The position numbers and the translations under genes are program-made. Shown piece by piece: positions 10,239-19,977 of a stretch of 20,000 bases of DNA (positions are counted from its first letter, which is position 1; each line of letters begins with the position of its first letter). The DNA lies in IMG/VR virus record IMGVR_UViG_3300020294_000004. One strand, 5' to 3'. This DNA is from an uncultured virus (IMG/VR IMGVR_UViG_3300020294_000004) (Duplodnaviria; Heunggongvirae; Uroviricota; Caudoviricetes; Crassvirales). The notes under the pieces were generated by a model. That model was not told the DNA's origin. It searched no databases and worked only from the letters and a program-made list of their open reading frames with translations.

Positions 10239-11687
10239 TTAAATACCTTTGAATAATACAAAGTTATTTGCAGCTTGAGTTACTAAACATCTTTCTGATA
10301 GGAAGTTTACTTCCATAGCATCAAGATTAGAAGTGTAAGCACCTCCAGCTGATCCAGTTAACCAAGACTTCATACGTCTGTCTTCTGTTTGAGAAGCTCT
10401 ATATCTAACGTGTAAGAATGGTCTTCTAATGTTTGTACCTAAAATTTGGTCATAAACAGTTGAAGTACCAGCAGGGATTAATACTCCTTCAATTGATTGA
10501 GTACCATCAATAGCACCTCTTGTAGAAGCGTCATTTAAGTATTTCCAATCAGTTTTGTAGAAGTCATATGAACCTCTTCTGAAACCACTAAATCCAAGAT
10601 TTAAAGCCATTTCTTCTGAGTTTTCAAATAATCCATAAGCAGTACCACCATTGCTACCGTAAGATACATTAGATAACATGTTATCAAAGTCTAAAGCTGT
10701 AGATCTTTGTAAGAATAACATATTTTCTTCAATAGCACCTTGAGTATCTAGGTTTTTAAGTATTGCATCAAAGTCATCTAAACCAGAAGCCGCAGAAAAT
10801 CCTACTTCTACGTTACCTCTTGTAGAGATAGCAGCGAAAAGACCTTCAGTACCTTTGAAACCAGCAGCAAATGCATCACCAGCTCCAACGTTAACAGCTT
10901 TTTCACCTTCAACACATACCATTTCTAAATAATCTTCAAATCTAAGTCTTGTTTCAGACTCAGCTTTTAAATACCATAAATAACCTGTAGTTCCATCTTC
11001 TGTAGCAACTTCAACCCAACCTATTTGAGCCATATCAGATCCGTTTATTGTGTAAACATTTCTAATTATGATAGGTGAATTGTTATATTGTTGAAAAGCA
11101 GGAGTTACAGTTATCTGTGGTTGAACAGCTGTATTTCCAGTTATGTTACCTGCAGCAGCGTTAGATGTAGCAGCGCCTTTAACAAATTCTGAACCATATA
11201 CAAATATTTTAAATTTAGCTGCATTAATGCTAGCTAAAGTTGTAGCAGTATAAGGAGATACGTGAACGTGACCGTTTGCAGTATCTGACTCAGTTACAAC
11301 ACCTTTAAGCTCTGCACCTTGATCATCTAATAAAACTACTGTTGAACCGGGTGAAATAACATTTCTTGTTACACCTGGAGAAGTAGGAAGTGGAACAGTT
11401 ACTCTTCTTGTTCCGTTGTGAGTACAGTTATCATATGCAATATGTAATCTGTTTTGTTCTGACCAAACAACTTGATCTGAAGTCATAGGCATTTCAGCAC
11501 CTACCATACGTAAAAAACCAGAAAGAGTTCTGTTTCCATATCTTTCTACTTCTTGTTCGTATATTTCAGGTAGATATTGCTGAGCAAAATCATTATTACC
11601 ATCTGTAAAAGATAGGTAATTACTGGCTAATAGCTGCTGATTAGGAGCAGGAACTATTGAGCCAAATTGTGGAGTTAAAATTCCCAT
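10239..11687 (-). CDS. Major capsid protein (HK97 fold, crAss-like)
   Basis: 482 aa, after portal and scaffold, followed by a hairpin. N-terminal QQYLPEIYEQEVERYGNRTLSGFLRMVGAEMPMTSDQVVWSEQNRLH and C-terminal MEVNFLSERCLVTQAANNF resemble MCPs of this phage group. Confidence 0.85.
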   Translation of the reverse strand: MGILTPQFGSIVPAPNQQLLASNYLSFTDGNNDFAQQYLPEIYEQEVERYGNRTLSGFLRMVGAEMPMTSDQVVWSEQNRLHIAYDNCTHNGTRRVTVPLPTSPGVTRNVISPGSTVVLLDDQGAELKGVVTESDTANGHVHVSPYTATTLASINAAKFKIFVYGSEFVKGAATSNAAAGNITGNTAVQPQITVTPAFQQYNNSPIIIRNVYTINGSDMAQIGWVEVATEDGTTGYLWYLKAESETRLRFEDYLEMVCVEGEKAVNVGAGDAFAAGFKGTEGLFAAISTRGNVEVGFSAASGLDDFDAILKNLDTQGAIEENMLFLQRSTALDFDNMLSNVSYGSNGGTAYGLFENSEEMALNLGFSGFRRGSYDFYKTDWKYLNDASTRGAIDGTQSIEGVLIPAGTSTVYDQILGTNIRRPFLHVRYRASQTEDRRMKSWLTGSAGGAYTSNLDAMEVNFLSERCLVTQAANNFVLFKGI

Positions 11688-11704: not shown

Positions 11705-12985
11705 TTAATTAAACGTTTTTCTTTTTATTTTTAACTTTGAAGAATCAACACCACTAATTGCTTTTACTTTTAAACCATTTACAAATAATTCACCTGAAGC
11801 TGTTTTACGAGGTTCAGTTGTTATATTTTTAGATTTAGCCATCTGTTCTTTTAATGCATCAGTTTTACCTTGTTCATAAAAGTGATTAGCAATAGTATCA
11901 GCATTTCGTGCAGCAAATAAAGCTTTGTGGTATCCTTTAGCGTCAGTTACATCTCCTTTTTCATTTAAGAACGTCTTAATAAAGTTTGATATATTACTTT
12001 GACTTTGGGCCACTGATGAAGGGTCTTTAATACCATATCTGAATTTTTTTTCTCCTAATTTAAAATCAAAACCTTTGAATTCTTCGTTGAGAAGGTTTTT
12101 TGTTTCAGATACAAACCTTTCATGACTAGCTTCACGTGCTTTTTGTTCTTCATTATAGCGATTAAAAAAGTCATTAGCTTTTTGTTGGTCCTGTGTTATG
12201 CCGGGTCTCAACTTGATTTCGTCATAATACTTTGTTTTTAGGTCCTCTAAATAGTTTTTGGCTTTTGCTATCTCTTCTTTATAAGCAAGTTTTTTCTTTT
12301 TTATATCTCGCTCATCATCCACCTCAGTATCAAATCTAAAAGAATCTTCAATTATAAAGTTTCTTTCTTCAGCGTCTAAATGAGGTTTAGCTTGTTTATA
12401 ATATTCATGAAGTAATACATCATTATTTACGTTTGTATAATCAGCATTTAAACGGGCATAATCTTGTACGTCACCACCCGTTTCTTCCATGAATTTTATT
12501 AATTTTTCTATGTTTTCAGGTAACTTTTGTGTTTCAGTTTCCTGTGATATTTTTTCTTGTTTCGATGTGGTAGCGGTAGTTTCATCGCTTCCTGCCACTC
12601 TTGTCTTGTCAGTATTATCTTCTTCATCTGTTATTAATTGTAAAGGTGAATCAGATTCTTCTTTTATTTCTTCAGATTCTTTTTTATCTGTAACATCTTG
12701 AATGGTGTCTTGTACTTGTTCGTCCACCTTAGCGCTATCTCCGGCTTGTTCGCCCACATCCACCTTCTTTGTTTCTCCGACTGGAATGGCATCTTCTTTT
12801 GGTTTTTTAGTTAAATCTACTTTTACTAAATCAGGTATTATTTTTTCTTCACCTAATTGTTTTGGCTTAGTTACTTTTTTTATTTTAAAACTACCTTCTT
12901 CTTTTGGAGGTGTTGTATTTGTAGCTTGTTCTTGTTTAGTTTCTTTTACAGGTTCTTCAACCATTACTTCTTCTTTTTGTGACAT
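11705..12985 (-). CDS. Putative capsid scaffolding/assembly protein (426 aa)
   Basis: Located between portal and MCP. Acidic low-complexity N-terminal third and helical C-terminal part. The start is moved from the ORF-track 13024 to ATG 12985 (MSQKEE), because the extra 13 codons are AT-rich leader overlapping the portal stop. Confidence 0.65.
   Translation of the reverse strand: MSQKEEVMVEEPVKETKQEQATNTTPPKEEGSFKIKKVTKPKQLGEEKIIPDLVKVDLTKKPKEDAIPVGETKKVDVGEQAGDSAKVDEQVQDTIQDVTDKKESEEIKEESDSPLQLITDEEDNTDKTRVAGSDETTATTSKQEKISQETETQKLPENIEKLIKFMEETGGDVQDYARLNADYTNVNNDVLLHEYYKQAKPHLDAEERNFIIEDSFRFDTEVDDERDIKKKKLAYKEEIAKAKNYLEDLKTKYYDEIKLRPGITQDQQKANDFFNRYNEEQKAREASHERFVSETKNLLNEEFKGFDFKLGEKKFRYGIKDPSSVAQSQSNISNFIKTFLNEKGDVTDAKGYHKALFAARNADTIANHFYEQGKTDALKEQMAKSKNITTEPRKTASGELFVNGLKVKAISGVDSSKLKIKRKTFN
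12508..12627 (-). CDS. Putative overprinted microprotein (39 aa, +1 frame in scaffold gene): MKKIILTRQEWQEAMKLPLPHRNKKKYHRKLKHKSYLKT
   Basis: Hand translation from ATG 12627 to TAG 12510-12508. GC is 25/50 at 12561-12610 versus 14/60 at 12631-12690. Contains an NKKKYxRKxKHK motif reminiscent of ArfA-like basic tails. Confidence 0.6.
   Translation of the reverse strand: MKKIILTRQEWQEAMKLPLPHRNKKKYHRKLKHKSYLKT
12664..12792 (-). CDS. Putative overprinted microprotein (42 aa, +1 frame in scaffold gene): MPFQSEKQRRWMWANKPEIALRWTNKYKTPFKMLQIKKNLKK
   Basis: Hand translation from ATG 12792 to TAA 12666-12664. GC jumps at the ATG: 39/70 at 12721-12790 versus 23/100 at 12801-12900. A-rich leader. Resembles the MPFxSExQRRxMxAxxPExAxRW small proteins I recall as free-standing phage ORFs. 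Confidence 0.7.
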   Translation of the reverse strand: MPFQSEKQRRWMWANKPEIALRWTNKYKTPFKMLQIKKNLKK

Positions 12986-13010: not shown

Positions 13011-15428
13011 CTATTGTGGAGCAAACTGCTCTAAACCAAATCCATCTAAATTATCATTACCAGCACTTTCAAAATTTACAGGTAATGTATCATTTTGTCT
13101 TTGATTTATTAATTCACTCTCTTGAGTTCCTTGCATTTGTACGCGTTTGTCTTTTCTATCTTCTATTTCTGTTTCTTTTTGACGTTTTGTTTGAGATCTC
13201 ATTTCTTCAAGCTGTATGTTATATCTAAATTCTTCAGCCATTAATTGTTTTTTAATTAATGCTTCTTGTTCCATACGTTGTATCTCAAATTGAGATTTTG
13301 CTTGTTCTATTTGAACTTCGGTATCAGCTAATGCTTGGTTTTTTTGTACTTCTGCCATTGCAGCTTTTTCAGCTGACTGTGCATTGGCAGCTGCTTGAGC
13401 TTGTATATTTTCTAATTGTTGTGCTCTGTCTTTTTCTTGCTTTTGTTTTTGCCTTAACTTAAGCATTTGATTAGCAAGTTTAATATTTTTTATTTCTCTT
13501 AAATCTATTGCATCTTCTAAACCTATATTTTTAGCTTGTAATGCAATTTGTATACTTTGTTCTAGTTGAGCTTTTTCTTCTTCATCAGGTTCAAGTTCTA
13601 AAAATATACCAAAATCATGTAAAGATAATTTTTCAACTTCTTCTAATGTTGCTGTATTAAAACCATTTATACTGTTTATTAAAGACTGTTTAGTTGTTGG
13701 AAACTGTAACATATCTGATACTCTTAAACTAATATTTTCACAAACTCTTACAGTTAAATACATTAATGCTTGTAACACATGTCTTGTAGCTGTATTAGAA
13801 TTAGCAGCTGCAAGCTTTTGTAAACCAACTAAAGCATTTTTATCAGGCGTGCTACCATCTCTTGCTTCATTAAGCCCGGTTACATCTCTTATCATTTGTA
13901 AATAATATTGATAAGTTTGTATCATTGACTGTATTTTAGACATGCCTGAAGACGTCTGTAATTCTTGCACCGGTACTTTACCTCTATTTAAATCACCATC
14001 TTGAGTTAAAGATCTTCCTACTACACTACCTGTTTGAAAATACATATTTAACGCTTCAGCAGGATTATAATTTGTACCATTACCTAAATCAACTTCGGCT
14101 AACCCATCAACATCTAAATAAACACCATCAGGTACTAACCTTGATATTACTTGTTGTAGTTTTAAATGAGTTAATTGAATCATATCTGCAAATCCAACTG
14201 TTTTACTTACAATAGATTCTATACGGCCTTGATACATTCTAGGTGAACTAATAACGTAATTCATATTAACTTTAGTCGTATCACCAAAAGGCCTTGTCAT
14301 GTTTTCACTTAATTCCCATTTTAAAAGATTATTACCAAGACCTAAAACTTTAGCTCCAGTATATAATACTTCTATTGATCTTGATATTCTATTAAAGTTA
14401 TCACTAGGTGGTGGATTAAATGTATCTGGTTTTTCTAATGTTTTTTCTAAACCTTGTTCTGTTTGTTTTATTTTAAAAACTTGATCTTGATAAGTTTTAT
14501 ATTCAAAATATAATATTTGTACTTGATCTTTAGTGTCTTGGCCCCACCAAGTGTTTTCTAGATATGTATTTCTACCAGGGTATTTTTGTATTTCTTCTAA
14601 TTCTGAATCTGTTAAATAAGGAAATTGTCTTTTAACTTCTGATAATGACATACTTTTAACCTCACCTACATAATATATATCTTCAAAATTTGGATCATCA
14701 GTATATGAATATACTAAATTAGCTGGATTTACATAATCTATAGTTATTCCTTCAGATAAATTAAAATCAGTTTTAACACAACCTATACCTAAAACAGTTA
14801 GATCGTATGCTAATTGTTTTTTTACTTGATCATATTTATTATAGTCTAAAATATTATTTATAACTTCTTCTTCTGCTATTTCAACACTTTGTTTAAAGTT
14901 TAATTGTAAATAAAGATCTAATTCTTCTGTAGTTCCTGGTAAATCATCTGGTGATGCTGAAGCAAATAAATTAGCATTAGGGCCTAATTGAGCTTGTAAT
15001 GCTTCAATCATTTCTTTATTTTCAATATCTCTTATAGCATTTTGAGCAAATGTAGTTTTATTTTTTATAGCAAATGGATCTTGAGCAAAAGATTTTATTT
15101 CATAACCTTTTTGTGTCATACCATTTACTACTATATCTACAAACTTAGATAATATTGGTACAGGCTTCCAATCTAAATTTAAATAAGATAAATCACCATT
15201 TATAGCTAATTCATCTTTATATTTTTGTACTGGTTGTTCTCCTCTAGCGTAAAGTCTTAGTCTATTAAAATTTTGAAAATTATTAATATATCTATTTTGA
15301 CCACTAGAGTTTTTAAACCACTCATATTCAATTGCTTGGGCTACTTGTAAACCATACTCTTTTGACTTTTTCTCTTCTTCAGGTACCACCTGATCTGGAA
15401 AAGCACTGTTATAGTTAATATTAACCAT
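13011..15428 (-). CDS. Portal protein
   Basis: 805 aa, coupled to terL by a TAATG overlap. LDWKPVPILSKFVDIVVNG, IRDVTGLNEARDGS and a long Q/E/K coiled-coil C-terminal barrel are typical of podoviral/crAss-like portals. Confidence 0.88.
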   Translation of the reverse strand: MVNINYNSAFPDQVVPEEEKKSKEYGLQVAQAIEYEWFKNSSGQNRYINNFQNFNRLRLYARGEQPVQKYKDELAINGDLSYLNLDWKPVPILSKFVDIVVNGMTQKGYEIKSFAQDPFAIKNKTTFAQNAIRDIENKEMIEALQAQLGPNANLFASASPDDLPGTTEELDLYLQLNFKQSVEIAEEEVINNILDYNKYDQVKKQLAYDLTVLGIGCVKTDFNLSEGITIDYVNPANLVYSYTDDPNFEDIYYVGEVKSMSLSEVKRQFPYLTDSELEEIQKYPGRNTYLENTWWGQDTKDQVQILYFEYKTYQDQVFKIKQTEQGLEKTLEKPDTFNPPPSDNFNRISRSIEVLYTGAKVLGLGNNLLKWELSENMTRPFGDTTKVNMNYVISSPRMYQGRIESIVSKTVGFADMIQLTHLKLQQVISRLVPDGVYLDVDGLAEVDLGNGTNYNPAEALNMYFQTGSVVGRSLTQDGDLNRGKVPVQELQTSSGMSKIQSMIQTYQYYLQMIRDVTGLNEARDGSTPDKNALVGLQKLAAANSNTATRHVLQALMYLTVRVCENISLRVSDMLQFPTTKQSLINSINGFNTATLEEVEKLSLHDFGIFLELEPDEEEKAQLEQSIQIALQAKNIGLEDAIDLREIKNIKLANQMLKLRQKQKQEKDRAQQLENIQAQAAANAQSAEKAAMAEVQKNQALADTEVQIEQAKSQFEIQRMEQEALIKKQLMAEEFRYNIQLEEMRSQTKRQKETEIEDRKDKRVQMQGTQESELINQRQNDTLPVNFESAGNDNLDGFGLEQFAPQ

Positions 15429-17650
15429 TAATTTAGTATTTTTGAAGTTACTCCTTTATTATTATACTTTTTAAAGTCTAAAGGTAAATTATTTATAGTT
15501 CTTTTTACTGTTGGTGTATATCTGTTTTTATTACAAGCCATAATAGCTAAGCCAGAACTTATGGAAGCATCGTGTTTAGTTCTATTATTTATATTAAACT
15601 TAGCCCAGTCTTCTAGTGTTCTTTGAAAATACATATCACCATATCTTTCATTATTAAATCCAATAAAATTTTCAATATAATCTTCTATCGCAGCTGCATG
15701 TGCTTGTTTTATATCTTCACTTGAATTAGGTATACCACCTATTTCTCTTTCTGTAACAGATAATTTATTATATACTTTATCAGGACGATTCATAGAATAA
15801 CCTCTATAACCTCTTCTTTTTAAATAATATAATAATCTAGGTTTATTATTTTCTGCAAGTAATGGCATACCATAAAAAACTAAAGCCATTAAAACATCTT
15901 CAAAAAATATTTCTGCTGTTTGAGGTCTTGCAATATATTCTAAAAAAAATAAATTAGGTGGTACATCTTCCATTGAAAACTTAGTTAAACCATGTAAAGA
16001 AGCTTTTGAACCTCTACCATCAACTGTTCCTGAAATATCATATGGATCACAACCAAAAGCACCAGTATGATCGTTACCTGGATATTTAACACCATTTTTT
16101 ATAATATACTTGTTTTGTAAATTATCATTAGGTACCCAAGAAACTAAAAATCTACCATTATTATTAGGAATAAATATAACTCTACTATCTTTAATCCCAT
16201 TTTCCCATTGAAAATTACCTTTTGTAATTACATTTGTATTTCTTAAATCTTCATTATAATCAATTTGTTCATAAATTTTAGTTAGATTAAATAAAGATTG
16301 TTTTGCTTCATCTCTAAAAGCGTGTTTTTCTGTTCTAGGAAATTGTCTATAAAATTCATTTAAACCGTCTTGATCATTTTTTAAACCTTCAACTTCGTTT
16401 TCCCAGTGTGAGATAACGCCAATTTCAATGTTGGATCCGTCAATACTTTTGACCGGTTTTTTTGGAGTTTCGAATACAGGAAACCCATAAGTATTAAGGT
16501 ATCCTTCGTAGTTCCATTCCATAGGTATGAACAAACTATATAATCCTGAATTAGTCTGTCCGTTGCGGTTTCTTTTTGTAACATCTGACGCATCATATAA
16601 TTTTTTAAAATTATTACCTCCTTTATCTAAAGCATTAGATGTAGATCCCATCATACACCTACCTATAATTCTACTACCTAATCTTAGCGTTGTCTTCGTG
16701 ACCCTCCAGTTGTTGAGGATGTTATCTGGCCTCTCCCACTTGCCCGATTCATCGTGTGCGAGGAGTTTGAGTTTCTCCCCGTCGTATGAGTTGTCACCGG
16801 TATTCTTCCAGTCGATCGTGGTATCGAGCCCAACGAGTTCCTCGGGACGTTCATTCTGATCGATCTTACGCCTTGTGAACTTCGACGCGGGTACACGATA
16901 TGCAAGTTCCGTTTTGGGACGATCCATACCGTCCTGTATCGGTTTAAAAAAGAATGGGTAATTAACGGATATTGGTACCACTTTGTCTGTAAACATTTTC
17001 TTCGCATCTGCTCCAGTCTTTGATAATATCCCGTACCGTGAATCACTAGATATTGTTGCCTGGTGTACGAGTTCTGATGAGGCCATAAAAGAAAATCCCG
17101 ATCTTCTATTCTTGAGATAGCACATTCCATAGGATCTGGTATCAAGTTTACAGGCTTCCCAAAATATGAAAAAGATTCTATTGGCTTCTCTGAATTCCGC
17201 GTTGCCAACATCAATTTTTGTCCACTGCAAGTACATATAATGAGACCCAGTAATATAGCTAGGAATACCTTTGTTATAGAAACAAAAGCCTTCTTCACGT
17301 CTTTTAAACTCTTCGTCAATATAATCATACCAAGTATTTTTAAAATCTAATGATGTTTGGTTCCAATCAAAAACTGTTTTAAGTTTTGATAATTGTTTTG
17401 GGTACTCAAATATTTCCCAATATTGATCTGTTTTATTTACAGATCTTTTATATACATTTTCACTTAAAGGTAAAGCTATTTTTAAACCCTGTATTTCATA
17501 TATTTCACCTATTTTACCTGTTTTACTTATAACAACTACATCGTGTTCTTTGTTATAACCTGGTTCCCATTTTTTATACCTATTATTATTTTTTATAATT
17601 TTAGGTTTTATATGATTAGGTAAAATTTTATATAAAGTGTTTGTATACAT
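15428..17650 (-). CDS. terL: Terminase large subunit
   Basis: 740 aa. Walker A variant LKNRRSGFS, Walker B LLAHDESGK, coupling motif GSTSN, nuclease motifs GAFGCDPYD and HDASISSG. Directly upstream of the portal. Confidence 0.93.
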   Translation of the reverse strand: MYTNTLYKILPNHIKPKIIKNNNRYKKWEPGYNKEHDVVVISKTGKIGEIYEIQGLKIALPLSENVYKRSVNKTDQYWEIFEYPKQLSKLKTVFDWNQTSLDFKNTWYDYIDEEFKRREEGFCFYNKGIPSYITGSHYMYLQWTKIDVGNAEFREANRIFFIFWEACKLDTRSYGMCYLKNRRSGFSFMASSELVHQATISSDSRYGILSKTGADAKKMFTDKVVPISVNYPFFFKPIQDGMDRPKTELAYRVPASKFTRRKIDQNERPEELVGLDTTIDWKNTGDNSYDGEKLKLLAHDESGKWERPDNILNNWRVTKTTLRLGSRIIGRCMMGSTSNALDKGGNNFKKLYDASDVTKRNRNGQTNSGLYSLFIPMEWNYEGYLNTYGFPVFETPKKPVKSIDGSNIEIGVISHWENEVEGLKNDQDGLNEFYRQFPRTEKHAFRDEAKQSLFNLTKIYEQIDYNEDLRNTNVITKGNFQWENGIKDSRVIFIPNNNGRFLVSWVPNDNLQNKYIIKNGVKYPGNDHTGAFGCDPYDISGTVDGRGSKASLHGLTKFSMEDVPPNLFFLEYIARPQTAEIFFEDVLMALVFYGMPLLAENNKPRLLYYLKRRGYRGYSMNRPDKVYNKLSVTEREIGGIPNSSEDIKQAHAAAIEDYIENFIGFNNERYGDMYFQRTLEDWAKFNINNRTKHDASISSGLAIMACNKNRYTPTVKRTINNLPLDFKKYNNKGVTSKILN
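16381..16596 (-). CDS. Possible second overprinted ORF in terL (+1 frame, 71 aa)
   Basis: ORF track. Same frame as 16684-17328. GC is 66/180 at 16381-16560 versus 25/120 at 16201-16320. No recognisable motif. Confidence 0.35.
   Translation of the reverse strand: MMRQMLQKETATDRLIQDYIVCSYLWNGTTKDTLILMGFLYSKLQKNRSKVLTDPTLKLALSHTGKTKLKV
16684..17328 (-). CDS. Putative overprinted lipoprotein/membrane-anchored protein (+1 frame within the terL ATPase domain, 214 aa; alternative GTG start at 17298)
   Basis: 214 stop-free codons in the +1 frame of an AT-rich gene. Basic N-region, hydrophobic VFLAILLGLII, then CTC-SG (Cys32/Cys34). R/S/T/G-rich tail. GC is 94/180 at 16741-16920 and collapses right after its stop. 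Confidence 0.6.
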   Translation of the reverse strand: MIILTKSLKDVKKAFVSITKVFLAILLGLIICTCSGQKLMLATRNSEKPIESFSYFGKPVNLIPDPMECAISRIEDRDFLLWPHQNSYTRQQYLVIHGTGYYQRLEQMRRKCLQTKWYQYPLITHSFLNRYRTVWIVPKRNLHIVYPRRSSQGVRSIRMNVPRNSLGSIPRSTGRIPVTTHTTGRNSNSSHTMNRASGRGQITSSTTGGSRRQR

Positions 17651-17922
17651 TATCTAGATCTTCCTTCAGCAAAACCTCCAAAATTAGAAGCTTTAGTATT
17701 TTTATTAATAGAATTAATTATATTTTCTTCTTCTTCAATTCTTGATAGTATTTCAAAAGCATCAAATATAGCTAATTTTTTTGTAGCAGCAGCGTTTTTT
17801 AATCTGTCAGCTGATACATCATCTTCTGAATCTACAATTTTTTCTTTAGCTACTTTTATTAATTCTTCAACTGCTTTTTGCCCAGCTTGGATTATACGTT
17901 TTTTGGTTTTGTTTATTTCCAT
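17650..17922 (-). CDS. Probable terminase small subunit (90 aa)
   Basis: Small helical protein coupled to terL by TAATG at 17650. The start is revised from the ORF-track 18009 to ATG 17922 (MEINKTKKRIIQAG). Function is assigned by position and size only. Confidence 0.5.
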   Translation of the reverse strand: MEINKTKKRIIQAGQKAVEELIKVAKEKIVDSEDDVSADRLKNAAATKKLAIFDAFEILSRIEEEENIINSINKNTKASNFGGFAEGRSR

Positions 17923-18469
17923 ATTTAAATAAAATATCATTTGATTCCATACAGTATAAAAGTTCATTATCAATAACAAACTCAAATTCTCTATTACTTT
18001 TAAACCCAACTAGATCTCCTGTGTTAATTTTAAGGGCTTCTAACGTGCTGTTTGTATATTTTAATACTCCAGTATTTTTTATTAATTTGGTATCTTTATA
18101 TACATCTTTTTCTAATACTGGTTTTACAAAACAATAATCTGCGTTTGTTTTCCACCCTTTTTTATAATACATATAAATTTGAGATGGATGTGCAAAATAT
18201 AAATTGTCTTTAAAAAACTTAGTACTATTTACTGATTTGCCTTTTAAATTATAATACCTTCTAAATAAATTATGATGTACTATAACTTTGTCACCTTTTT
18301 TTATATTTGTTTTATAAGCAAGAGGTGCAGCAACTATTTCAGCATGTCTATTTATAAATTTATGATTTGATATACTTGAGTTAAGTATAAGTTCTGTGTT
18401 GTTGATTTTTAATTTATTATTATATCTTTCACCTATAGGTTTTATAATAAATTGATATATACTATTCAT
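17867..18469 (-). CDS. GroES/Cpn10-like co-chaperonin with two tandem domains
   Basis: 200 aa with two GroES-like units: FIIKP...AEIVAAP...IKKGDKVIV and YCFVKP...TGVLKY...INTGDLVGF..EFEFVIDNELLYCMESNDIL. Compare GroES vkvGDkVlf..gtevkidgeeylilresDIL. Confidence 0.65.
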   Translation of the reverse strand: MNSIYQFIIKPIGERYNNKLKINNTELILNSSISNHKFINRHAEIVAAPLAYKTNIKKGDKVIVHHNLFRRYYNLKGKSVNSTKFFKDNLYFAHPSQIYMYYKKGWKTNADYCFVKPVLEKDVYKDTKLIKNTGVLKYTNSTLEALKINTGDLVGFKSNREFEFVIDNELLYCMESNDILFKYGNKQNQKTYNPSWAKSS

Positions 18470-19596: not shown

Positions 19597-19977
19597 TTAT
19601 TTTACTTTGTCTTTTATTTTTTCATAAGTTCTAAGTCCACCTAATCCTAACATACCTAATAGTACAGTCATTAAATGTTCCATTTGTAGTGGTGGTGGTA
19701 CGTCTGTTGATTTTGTAATCCATATAAATAAATCACGAATAACAAAATTATATGCTAAAGCAAAACCACATATCCAACCTACAAAAGGTCGCCACCCTGC
19801 AACAAATAAAGTTCTATGCGAGGCTTCAACCATATTAATTTTTGTTTGTAATTCTATTAGTTTTTCTGGATCAAGCTCTTTACCTTTAATGGCTTCTCTT
19901 ATTTCCCAAGCTAAACCTCCAGCGACAGATTTTCTACCATCACCTCCTTTAAGAAGACCTAGTAGTAATTTCCACAT
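19597..19977 (-). CDS. Holin, 3-TM GTA-type family (GTA_holin_3TM-like)
   Basis: Signature INMVEASHRTLFVAGWRPFVGWICG and C-terminal LLGMLGLGGLRTYEK, with hydrophobic segments. Confidence 0.8.
   Translation of the reverse strand: MWKLLLGLLKGGDGRKSVAGGLAWEIREAIKGKELDPEKLIELQTKINMVEASHRTLFVAGWRPFVGWICGFALAYNFVIRDLFIWITKSTDVPPPLQMEHLMTVLLGMLGLGGLRTYEKIKDKVK

Follow-up and report, generated by a model that had tools for sequence, protein, structure and literature searches.

In the current study, a stretch of 20,000 nucleotides from an uncultured crAss-like virus (IMG/VR record IMGVR_UViG_3300020294_000004), hereafter referred to as the window, was found to contain a 39-codon open reading frame (ORF), designated ORF2, which is very probably a genuine protein-coding gene that is overprinted in the +1 frame of a longer gene, here called gene X (positions 11705..12985, minus strand, 426 amino acids (aa)). 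The sequence relationships of its basic product suggest that it falls within a superfamily comprising the ribosome-rescue factor ArfA and the Pfam family DUF7230, where it would represent a variant without the GKGS loop, an assignment which we regard as reasonably probable, while the reading in full, namely an overprinted gene with an ArfA-like product that binds the ribosome, stands at about an even chance of being correct. ORF2 (12508..12627, minus strand) extends from an ATG at 12625-12627, located 358 nucleotides after the ATG of gene X, to a TAG at 12508-12510, and specifies the 39-aa peptide MKKIILTRQEWQEAMKLPLPHRNKKKYHRKLKHKSYLKT, which has an isoelectric point (pI) of 10.67 and contains 13 Lys and Arg residues. 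The position and frame which an earlier note, made from the sequence alone, had assigned to this ORF agree with the ORF list of the window (12508-12627, minus strand, +1 frame).

Judged from this one genome the open +1 frame is not beyond chance: when host residues 120-160 were synonymously recoded with the codon usage of the phage in 20000 trials, the +1 frame was open across 39 codons in 7346/20000 recodings and open with an ATG start in 6071/20000 (30-37% of recodings). The reservation expressed in the earlier note, i.e. that Lys-richness is expected from +1 reading of GAA-rich acidic sequence, holds for a single genome. Since the openness of the frame in a single genome is unsurprising, the decision rests on relatives, and in comparison with these ORF2 is far beyond chance. 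A search with the gene X protein yielded 596 relatives in 600 matched viral stretches, from which the best 80 were retrieved (the host-chosen sample). Across these 80 loci the acidic N-terminal part of gene X varies in length and sequence, and 15 of them possess a segment homologous to the ORF2 region. ORF2 is intact in 13/15, a number that includes the window's own record, and these copies always comprise 39 codons and employ the same ATG, down to a host protein identity of about 55-60%; the other two are broken, one by a change of the ATG to ACG, silent in the host frame (GAT to GAC), together with an internal stop (L007) and one by three stops (L049).

An alignment of 12 nested ORF2 peptides (A1) was employed in a second search, which produced 510 relatives in 599 matched viral stretches. 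All 80 loci retrieved from this peptide-chosen sample, which like the 71-sequence set drawn from it is biased towards conserved copies, carry an intact nested ORF2 of 35-42 codons, two of which start three codons earlier. The frame one base upstream of ORF2 is the long gene X frame in all 80, and measures 390-436 codons in the 76 loci where gene X stays within the contig. Residues N23, K25, K26, Y27, R29, K30, K32, H33 and K34, as well as W11, are invariant in the nested clade (12 sequences), while E10 and A14 are nearly invariant family-wide. Relatives thus retain the start and the length of ORF2 as well as its N-K-K-K-Y-x-R-K-x-K-H motif, whose conservation the earlier note had proposed to examine.

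The substitution pattern reveals which frame is constrained. Among the 13 host-chosen sequences, pairwise differences at host codon positions 1/2/3 amounted to 1038/578/509, and variable columns to 28/18/15 of 40 each (chi-square p about 0.01, a value that is indicative only, as the sequences are related). Parsimony changes, counted on 71 unique sequences with a tree derived from the gene X C-terminal domain, numbered 334/149/122 in the ORF2 region (36 sites per class), as against 1125/732/2668 at the same positions of the gene X C-terminal domain (265 sites per class). Site for site, the ORF2 region thus behaves like ordinary coding DNA whose reading frame is the +1 frame. The mean identity between pairs was 0.752 for the ORF2 peptides, 0.494 for those of the host frame and 0.524 for those of the +2 frame, with a nucleotide identity of 0.744. 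Where the ORF2 peptide was fixed, the host frame was open in 87/20000 synonymous recodings (0.4%), and it is open in 76/76 complete relatives; since the host frame is rarely open by chance yet is always open, both frames are maintained, representing true dual coding. The possibility that gene X starts further downstream, which would render ORF2 and the second nested ORF (ORF1, described below) intergenic, was considered and rejected, as in all complete relatives the host frame runs without a break from a conserved N-terminal motif to the C-terminal domain, and this is very unlikely to occur by chance.

Homologues of ORF2 also exist as genes in their own right. An exhaustive profile search of 1.84 billion representative proteins returned 51 proteins at E<=1e-3, nine of which at <=1e-10; most of these relatives are 40-60 aa long with the core [LI]xLTxxEWxxA[LM][KR]xPxPHRNKKKYxRKxKHK, and in the databases they are unnamed or described as 'hypothetical' small proteins only. 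Scanning one genome per prokaryote species identified 19 loci, all situated on contigs of metagenome-assembled genomes (MAGs). Five of the 19 represent the nested form in crAss-like head modules, including a broken copy with a TAG at the invariant Trp (L166); another eleven are small genes that stand alone, e.g. directly upstream of DnaB-like helicase genes or close to lysin/tail genes, and the remaining three are 63-64-aa proteins with the tail alone in common. At the stand-alone loci, the neighbouring ORFs that match PHROG are all of phage-type families. The cultured Flavobacterium phage immuto possesses an annotated 49-aa homologue (immuto26A_124), and 13/43 family members match phrog_6310 while 8/43 match phrog_18092, both being families of unknown function. 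NCBIfam, searched with 29 family members, gave nothing relevant, tblastn of protein P0066 against deposited phages produced irrelevant weak matches only, and a word-based protein search with a 40-aa query (one extra upstream residue) retrieved no candidate of 22-70 aa. The nested form was found in no cultured phage, be it in the searches of deposited phages (tblastn of ORF2 without a match at E<=1; blastn of gene X without a match) or upon inspection of Maribacter phage Panino and Flavobacterium phage elemoA. The viral record that contains the window has only the nested copy of ORF2 and no second one.

With regard to ancestry, the link to ArfA emerges more clearly from intermediates. A tblastn search of a phage collection with Escherichia coli ArfA matched 17 records, some of them bacterial contigs and some weak; short ORFs were extracted from ten of these records and four were scanned against Pfam, all four of which passed the ArfA model PF03889 (Pseudomonas phage pf16, 72.5 bits; Pseudoalteromonas phage J2-1, 41.3; Roseobacter phage CRP-212, 33.3; RXM, 29.6). 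The J2-1 protein (P0225, ATN93434.1) passes both PF03889 and the DUF7230 model PF23876 (28.6 bits), is without GKGS and ends in the tail K-T-K-Y-R-R-K-K-K-H-K, which is very like that of ORF2. A 43-sequence alignment of the ORF2 family with the window peptide first (A4) was matched by hhalign to J2-1 ArfA with a score of 28.7 (probability 80.4%, E 1.3e-5, 36 columns), and to A5, in which 11 diverse ArfA proteins are aligned, all but one of phage origin, with a score of 25.4 (probability 48.5%, E 1.8e-4, 22 columns, tail only). The alignment of A4 with the J2-1 protein is the sole one to extend, with gaps, into the N-terminal half. Composition-preserving shuffles of the A5 columns and of the J2-1 residues, 300 each, reached the observed score in 0/300 cases each, their maxima being 17.6 (J2-1) and 15.0 (A5); since the shuffles never reach the observed scores, the similarity depends on the order of the residues and not on composition.

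DUF7230 points in the same direction. Sub-threshold matches to this family, with E values of 2e-5 to 0.3, were obtained for 31/51 relatives (best score 25.0 bits) and for several nested copies; the nested relatives scored 15.4-16.1 bits, which is below the 27-bit cut-off. In relatives that start at the family N-terminus the residue number equals the model position (12-32 to 12-32 of 42), and the H-R-N-K-K-K-Y-x-R-K-x-K-H core lies at model positions of about 13-37. When the DUF7230 model was run against the E. coli K-12 chromosome the sole candidate lay inside arfA (E 0.96), and the second Pfam match of E. coli ArfA is DUF7230 (E 0.11). A feature search of the ESM Atlas, whose results serve as leads only, listed unnamed clusters first, with an ArfA-carrying cluster at rank 11 (0.91) and a DUF7230-carrying cluster at rank 18 (0.90). 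No paper mentioning DUF7230 or PF23876 was found in a literature search.

The ORF2 peptide accordingly invites comparison with both families. In common with phage ArfA, known examples of which are J2-1 ATN93434.1, BAMBUS_05560 of Brevundimonas phage Bambus and the unannotated ORFs of pf16 and CRP-212, it is phage-carried and very small (39 aa, as compared to 39-51 aa for the phage forms), consists of a short N-terminal segment, a Pro-containing hinge and a basic tail, maintains Y-x-R-K-x-K-H including the K-H pair in the same register, and has its stop codon soon after the tail. It differs in having no GKGS, in leaving PF03889 unmatched, in its N-terminal consensus LTxxEWxxA and in being encoded inside another gene. 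With DUF7230, a 42-position family of unknown function, the ORF2 family shares colinear proteins of approximately 40 aa and an H-[RK]-N-K-K-K-Y-x-R-K-x-K-H-K core, but none of its members reaches the 27-bit cut-off. On the strength of these sequence comparisons, common ancestry with ArfA is likely, not proven.

A number of observations weigh against the reading of ORF2 as an ArfA-like gene whose product binds the ribosome. As to distribution, ORF2 is absent from 65/80 host-chosen loci, which have an unrelated linker with many +1 stops, and the gene X of phages Panino and elemoA is without either nested ORF; the broken copies L007, L049 and L166 show that ORF2 is dispensable in some lineages, and the bias of the peptide-chosen sample has to be counted here as well. 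As to ArfA, PF03889 (gathering score 25.5 bits) found no match at E<=10 in the window peptide or in any of the 51 relatives (0/51), with positive controls at 89.5 bits (E. coli ArfA) and 29.6-72.5 bits (phage forms). BLASTP of ORF2 against E. coli ArfA gave no alignment, and hhalign produced weak, tail-only matches to E. coli ArfA (P0103; probability 8.4%) and to 14 of its close relatives (78-92% identical; A3; 4.6%), while the nested clade alone (A1) matched A5 with a probability of 21.3%. A profile search of the PDB with A1 (12 nested copies) gave 0 matches at E<=10; the broader family profile A2 gave six, four of which are ArfA chains that align N-K-K, a three-residue gap and Y-x-R-K-x-K-H in register, at E values of 0.36-0.61 which are not significant. 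The window peptide itself does not match DUF7230 (PF23876, gathering score 27 bits). The earlier note's suggestion of an ArfA-like tail is in this respect upheld in part: the profile matches to J2-1 ArfA and to A5 support it, while the PF03889 model is unmatched and the enterobacterial ArfA matches are weak.

Features of the peptide itself are to be set on the same side. The GKGS loop, nearly invariant in the 11 ArfA sequences, is indeed missing from ORF2 as had been claimed, the residues N-K-K-K being placed directly before Y27, and the segment between the helix/hinge and the tail is about eight residues shorter than in ArfA. The N-terminal consensus of the ArfA type also appears to be missing, which counts against a full rescue function, and, according to a review (PMC8012679), ArfA cut to 40 residues has lost its rescue activity. 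Furthermore, some 20 basic residues account for most of the similarity to ArfA, which may have arisen by convergence, as Glu-rich DNA yields Lys-rich peptides when it is read in the +1 frame.

AlphaFold2 modelling of ORF2 with A4 (mean predicted local distance difference test 79) predicted a short helix at codons 8-15 (RQEWQEAM; 12583..12606, minus strand), a P-x-P hinge in extended conformation and, within the tail, short helical turns, which recovers, at the level of a prediction, the arrangement that had been proposed from the sequence, with a short helix preceding a basic tail. The basic tail (codons 21-34, HRNKKKYHRKLKHK; 12526..12567, minus strand) contains the Y-x-R-K-x-K-H motif and aligns with the tail by which ArfA occupies the messenger RNA (mRNA) channel. 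As set out in the same review, when ribosomes stall on truncated mRNA the C-terminal part of ArfA occupies their mRNA entry channel and its N-terminal part recruits release factor 2 (RF2), and the K-H motif, common to ArfA and BrfA, contacts the mRNA entry channel (PMC8012679). Prediction of a complex between ORF2 (A4) and RF2 of a Flavobacteriales MAG gave a score of 0.00 without controls, which speaks neither for nor against binding.

As ORF2 keeps the Y-x-R-K-x-K-H register and K32-H33 is invariant, a minimal ArfA-like peptide is proposed. Overprinted in the +1 frame of the acidic and loosely constrained N-terminal linker of gene X, ORF2 would be expressed late in infection along with the head proteins; its product would probe ribosomes for empty mRNA channels, and where one has stalled on a degraded message, at the 3' end of a truncated mRNA, the basic tail and its K-H motif would slot into the vacant entry channel. 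A release factor would be engaged by the short strand and helix at the N-terminus, and the stalled ribosome would thus be freed for late phage protein synthesis. The phage would thereby bring in a rescue function that its host lacks: in a survey (PMC11633108), ArfA is recorded in 0/1,956 genomes of the Fibrobacteres-Chlorobi-Bacteroidetes (FCB) group, being restricted to Gamma-, some Betaproteobacteria and a few Bacillus, whereas the relatives of the ORF2 phage infect Flavobacteriia. A precedent is provided by gp30 of pelagiphage HTVC027P, which is described as a highly expressed ArfA (PMC12753301), and the review anticipates further small rescue factors that are still to be identified and regards such factors as adapted to their species (PMC8012679). 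By analogy with ArfA, binding of the peptide to the ribosomal mRNA channel is a proposal for and against which we see the case as evenly poised; that the peptide acts as a true ribosome-rescue factor is advanced more tentatively, and is in our judgement rather less probable.

The alternative that survives best accepts ORF2 as a real gene but assigns its product no part in rescue: the basic tail would bind ribosomes, ribosomal RNA or nucleic acid for some other purpose such as a block of the host mRNA channel (shut-off or hijacking), anti-defence, or service as a counter-ion for DNA or for the acidic head protein in whose gene it is encoded; we hold this to be possible, if on the unlikely side. 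All of the evidence for a real gene applies equally to it, the peptide is very basic (pI 10.67) and the host linker acidic (gene X residues 1-170: pI 4.56, 43 Asp and Glu), the N-terminal half is without significant similarity to the release-factor-recruiting part of canonical ArfA, and stand-alone homologues occur in varied contexts, including replication modules beside DnaB-like helicases. The same stand-alone copies, lying far from head genes, argue against a role that is tied to the gene X head protein, however, and the best alignment, that with J2-1 ArfA, covers 36/39 residues and extends beyond the tail. The motif moreover follows ArfA exactly in its Y-x-R-K-x-K-H register, K-H pair included, which is more than basic charge.

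Convergence, by which a Glu-rich linker, whose +1 frame readily yields Lys-rich peptides, would have given rise to the ORF2 family de novo, with a later spread as a stand-alone gene and without ArfA ancestry whatever the function, appears improbable. J2-1 ArfA represents an intermediate, being without GKGS, passing the thresholds of both ArfA and DUF7230 and matching the ORF2 family with 80% probability, the shuffled controls never came close to the observed scores, and a threshold-passing ArfA is nested in an acidic segment of CRP-212, so that nesting does not imply de novo birth. These arguments have to be balanced against the weak statistics obtained with canonical ArfA, the approximately 30% of recodings of the host peptide that yield an open +1 frame with an ATG, and the precedent, given in the review, that ArfA, BrfA and ArfT share features including K-H yet evolved independently (PMC8012679). 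ArfT of Francisella (about 40 aa) and BrfA of Bacillus, which were compared by description only, resemble ORF2 in being very small and, as that review has it, recruit release factors, but both are cellular stand-alone genes, BrfA sharing the K-H motif (PMC8012679). That ORF2 is no gene at all, a chance open frame whose apparent conservation reflects constraint on the host protein, draws on its openness in a single genome (7346/20000), on the overlap of its last codons (KHKSYLKT) with the conserved start of the gene X C-terminal domain (ETQKLPENIE) and on the occurrence of broken copies, but is very improbable and already largely refuted by a periodicity in which host codon position 3 changes least and position 1 most, the reverse of the gene X C-terminal domain, by a +1 peptide that is better conserved than the host peptide (0.752 versus 0.494) and by stand-alone homologues without an overlapping host gene.

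If the reading of ORF2 as an ArfA-like overprinted gene is correct, the known range of release-factor-dependent rescue would extend to phages of Bacteroidota, in whose cells ArfA was found to be lacking (PMC11633108), and a minimal rescue peptide of about 35 residues that does without the GKGS loop would be defined. This in turn would reveal the essential parts of ArfA and the means by which phages maintain a supply of ribosomes late in infection. Irrespective of function, the nested form of ORF2 is not reported by gene callers, although selection has conserved it across hundreds of marine phage contigs, and it provides an unusually clean case of dual coding in which selection is measurable in both frames. 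Among the titles and abstracts listed in a literature search, none reported nested genes in crAss-like head genes.

ArfA-type sequences were also encountered in other phages. Roseobacter phage CRP-212 (MZ892988.1, L186:289-414) possesses an unannotated 41-codon ORF with 33.3 bits to PF03889. It occupies the +1 frame of an annotated 3.6-kb gene, CRP212_gp38, within the part that encodes the acidic C-terminal region, and represents a second, independent ArfA-type gene overprinted on an acidic segment. The ArfA ORF of pf16 (L187:295-438; 72.5 bits) is likewise unannotated and overlaps a coding sequence (CDS) on the opposite strand, gp99c of Salmonella phage Arash (L190) is annotated as 'ribosomal protein L2' and holds ArfA-like sequence, and in Ralstonia phage RsoM2USA (L192) the ArfA match is antisense to an annotated CDS. 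Phage ArfA genes are often missed or misnamed. In common with other overprinted phage genes, ORF2 is small and basic and uses an alternative reading frame within a large gene, at a segment that is flexible or acidic; it differs in its divergent GKGS-less sequence, in lying beside a second conserved nested gene, in its presence in hundreds of contigs and in the selection on both frames. The Lys-rich +1 frames of acidic linkers, together with the tolerance of such linkers to change, may explain why such pairs arise or persist. It is a speculative and, at present, doubtful extension that ArfA-type microproteins form a hidden class of phage genes which recur in the +1 frame of acidic disordered segments, a view supported by gene X and by CRP-212 gp38. 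If it is true, phages would supply release-factor-dependent rescue to hosts that have no ArfA (Bacteroidota, Alphaproteobacteria), and the GKGS-less branch formed by ORF2 and DUF7230 would represent a new minimal rescue factor of about 35-40 residues. The recurrence of ArfA-like ORFs in acidic linkers would then indicate how, in general, the same DNA can come to encode both an acidic linker and a basic peptide that binds ribosomes.

The window forms part of a 37-kb viral record with an estimated completeness of 57%, and its long ORFs, all on the minus strand, constitute the structural block of a crAss-like podovirus. Gene X is positioned between the portal gene (13011..15428; phrog_6547, E 7.4e-137) and a putative major capsid gene (10239..11687; phrog_13704 virion structural protein, E 2.2e-88), the latter being followed by further structural proteins, one of which has a crAss muzzle C-terminal domain. 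The large terminase gene (15428-17650; phrog_6681) lies beyond the portal gene, with a gene for a GroES-like co-chaperonin of 200 aa (17867-18469; phrog_13932, E 6.2e-24) just upstream of it and, further upstream, a holin with three transmembrane segments (19597-19977; PF11351, phrog_3427), all on the minus strand. No tRNA or tmRNA genes were found in the window. The order of portal, gene X and capsid-type gene is the same in phages Panino and elemoA, in which a GroES-like gene is likewise located just upstream of the terminase. The portal protein matches 87 deposited phage records, one of which is an uncultured Caudoviricetes; the other 86, for which a host is named, all infect Flavobacteriia (Flavobacterium 68, Cellulophaga 15, Tenacibaculum 2, Maribacter 1). 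The phage is a marine crAss-like phage with a probable host among the Flavobacteriia. Gene X matched no PHROG or Pfam family. Its N-terminal part, some 170 aa in length, is acidic, shows poor conservation and holds both nested ORFs; a conserved C-terminal domain follows, and as its homologue in elemoA is annotated 'structural protein', its product is a putative scaffolding or head structural protein.

As regards expression of ORF2, a Shine-Dalgarno sequence was found at none of the annotated genes of the window, whose upstream regions are AT-rich, those of ORF1 and ORF2 alike; since annotated genes do without it, its absence at ORF2 counts for nothing. The Bacteroidetes-type -7 promoter motif TANNTTTG has no minus-strand site between 12628 and 13011, and its count over the window is at chance level (38 versus 34.5 expected). 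With no internal promoter motif, translation of ORF2 presumably starts internally on the mRNA of the late structural genes.

Some relatives of ORF2 deserve mention in their own right. In the 63-64-aa proteins of L176:3872-4066, L179:3872-4066 and L178:1414-1605 a G-x-H-K-N-K-K-K-Y-S-R-K-x-K-H-K tail is found behind an unrelated N-terminal half, and on this basis the basic tail seems to be a module combined with different heads; L176 and L179 are long MAG contigs (178 kb and 432 kb) in which the tail protein is encoded beside a phrog_21942 gene. In the metagenomic proteins P0035, P0042, P0007 and P0052 a gene X-like acidic N-terminus runs in-frame into the ORF2 tail (…LKLPTPHKNKKKYSRKQKHK…), and these may be natural frame fusions, frameshifted variants or sequencing errors. 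The stand-alone homologues P0002, P0003, P0004, P0031, P0038 and P0046 read into, or start from, a recurring stretch …SYIY..N.GYG…, and P0003 has a stretch, …GGSNPSP…, which may resemble the translated 3' end of a tRNA. These features hint that some flanking DNA element, such as a hairpin or a tRNA gene, is conserved. One cluster holds two 562-aa members, of which the one inspected, P0061, is an unrelated membrane protein; this is regarded as a clustering artefact.

The second nested ORF, ORF1 (12664..12792, minus strand, 42 codons; MPFQSEKQRRWMW...), starts with MPFQSEKQ and lies in the same +1 frame of gene X, from which ORF2 is separated by an AT-rich spacer of 36 nucleotides (12628..12663, minus strand) with two +1 stops directly before the ORF2 ATG, in agreement with the gap, the shared frame and the spacer stops that had been described. 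The G+C contents of ORF1 (0.426), the spacer (0.278), ORF2 (0.375) and gene X (0.318) likewise bear out the separate GC patches over the two ORFs. The notion that the pair forms a two-gene cassette holds in so far as conservation extends to the two nested ORFs alike, but the distribution of ORF1 is much wider than that of ORF2: its MPF start motif is carried by 139/156 gene X homologues, and 123 unique sequences show no variation at M1, P2 and Q8. Pfam gave nothing above the cut-off for 14 ORF1 peptides (best Choline_sulf_C, 22.3 bits, cut-off 27), and a weak match to phrog_1375 was obtained (E 3.3e-4). Changes in ORF1 by host codon position numbered 301/219/218, compared to 1930/1245/4485 in the control, and the host frame was open in 1/20000 recodings that fixed the ORF1 peptide.

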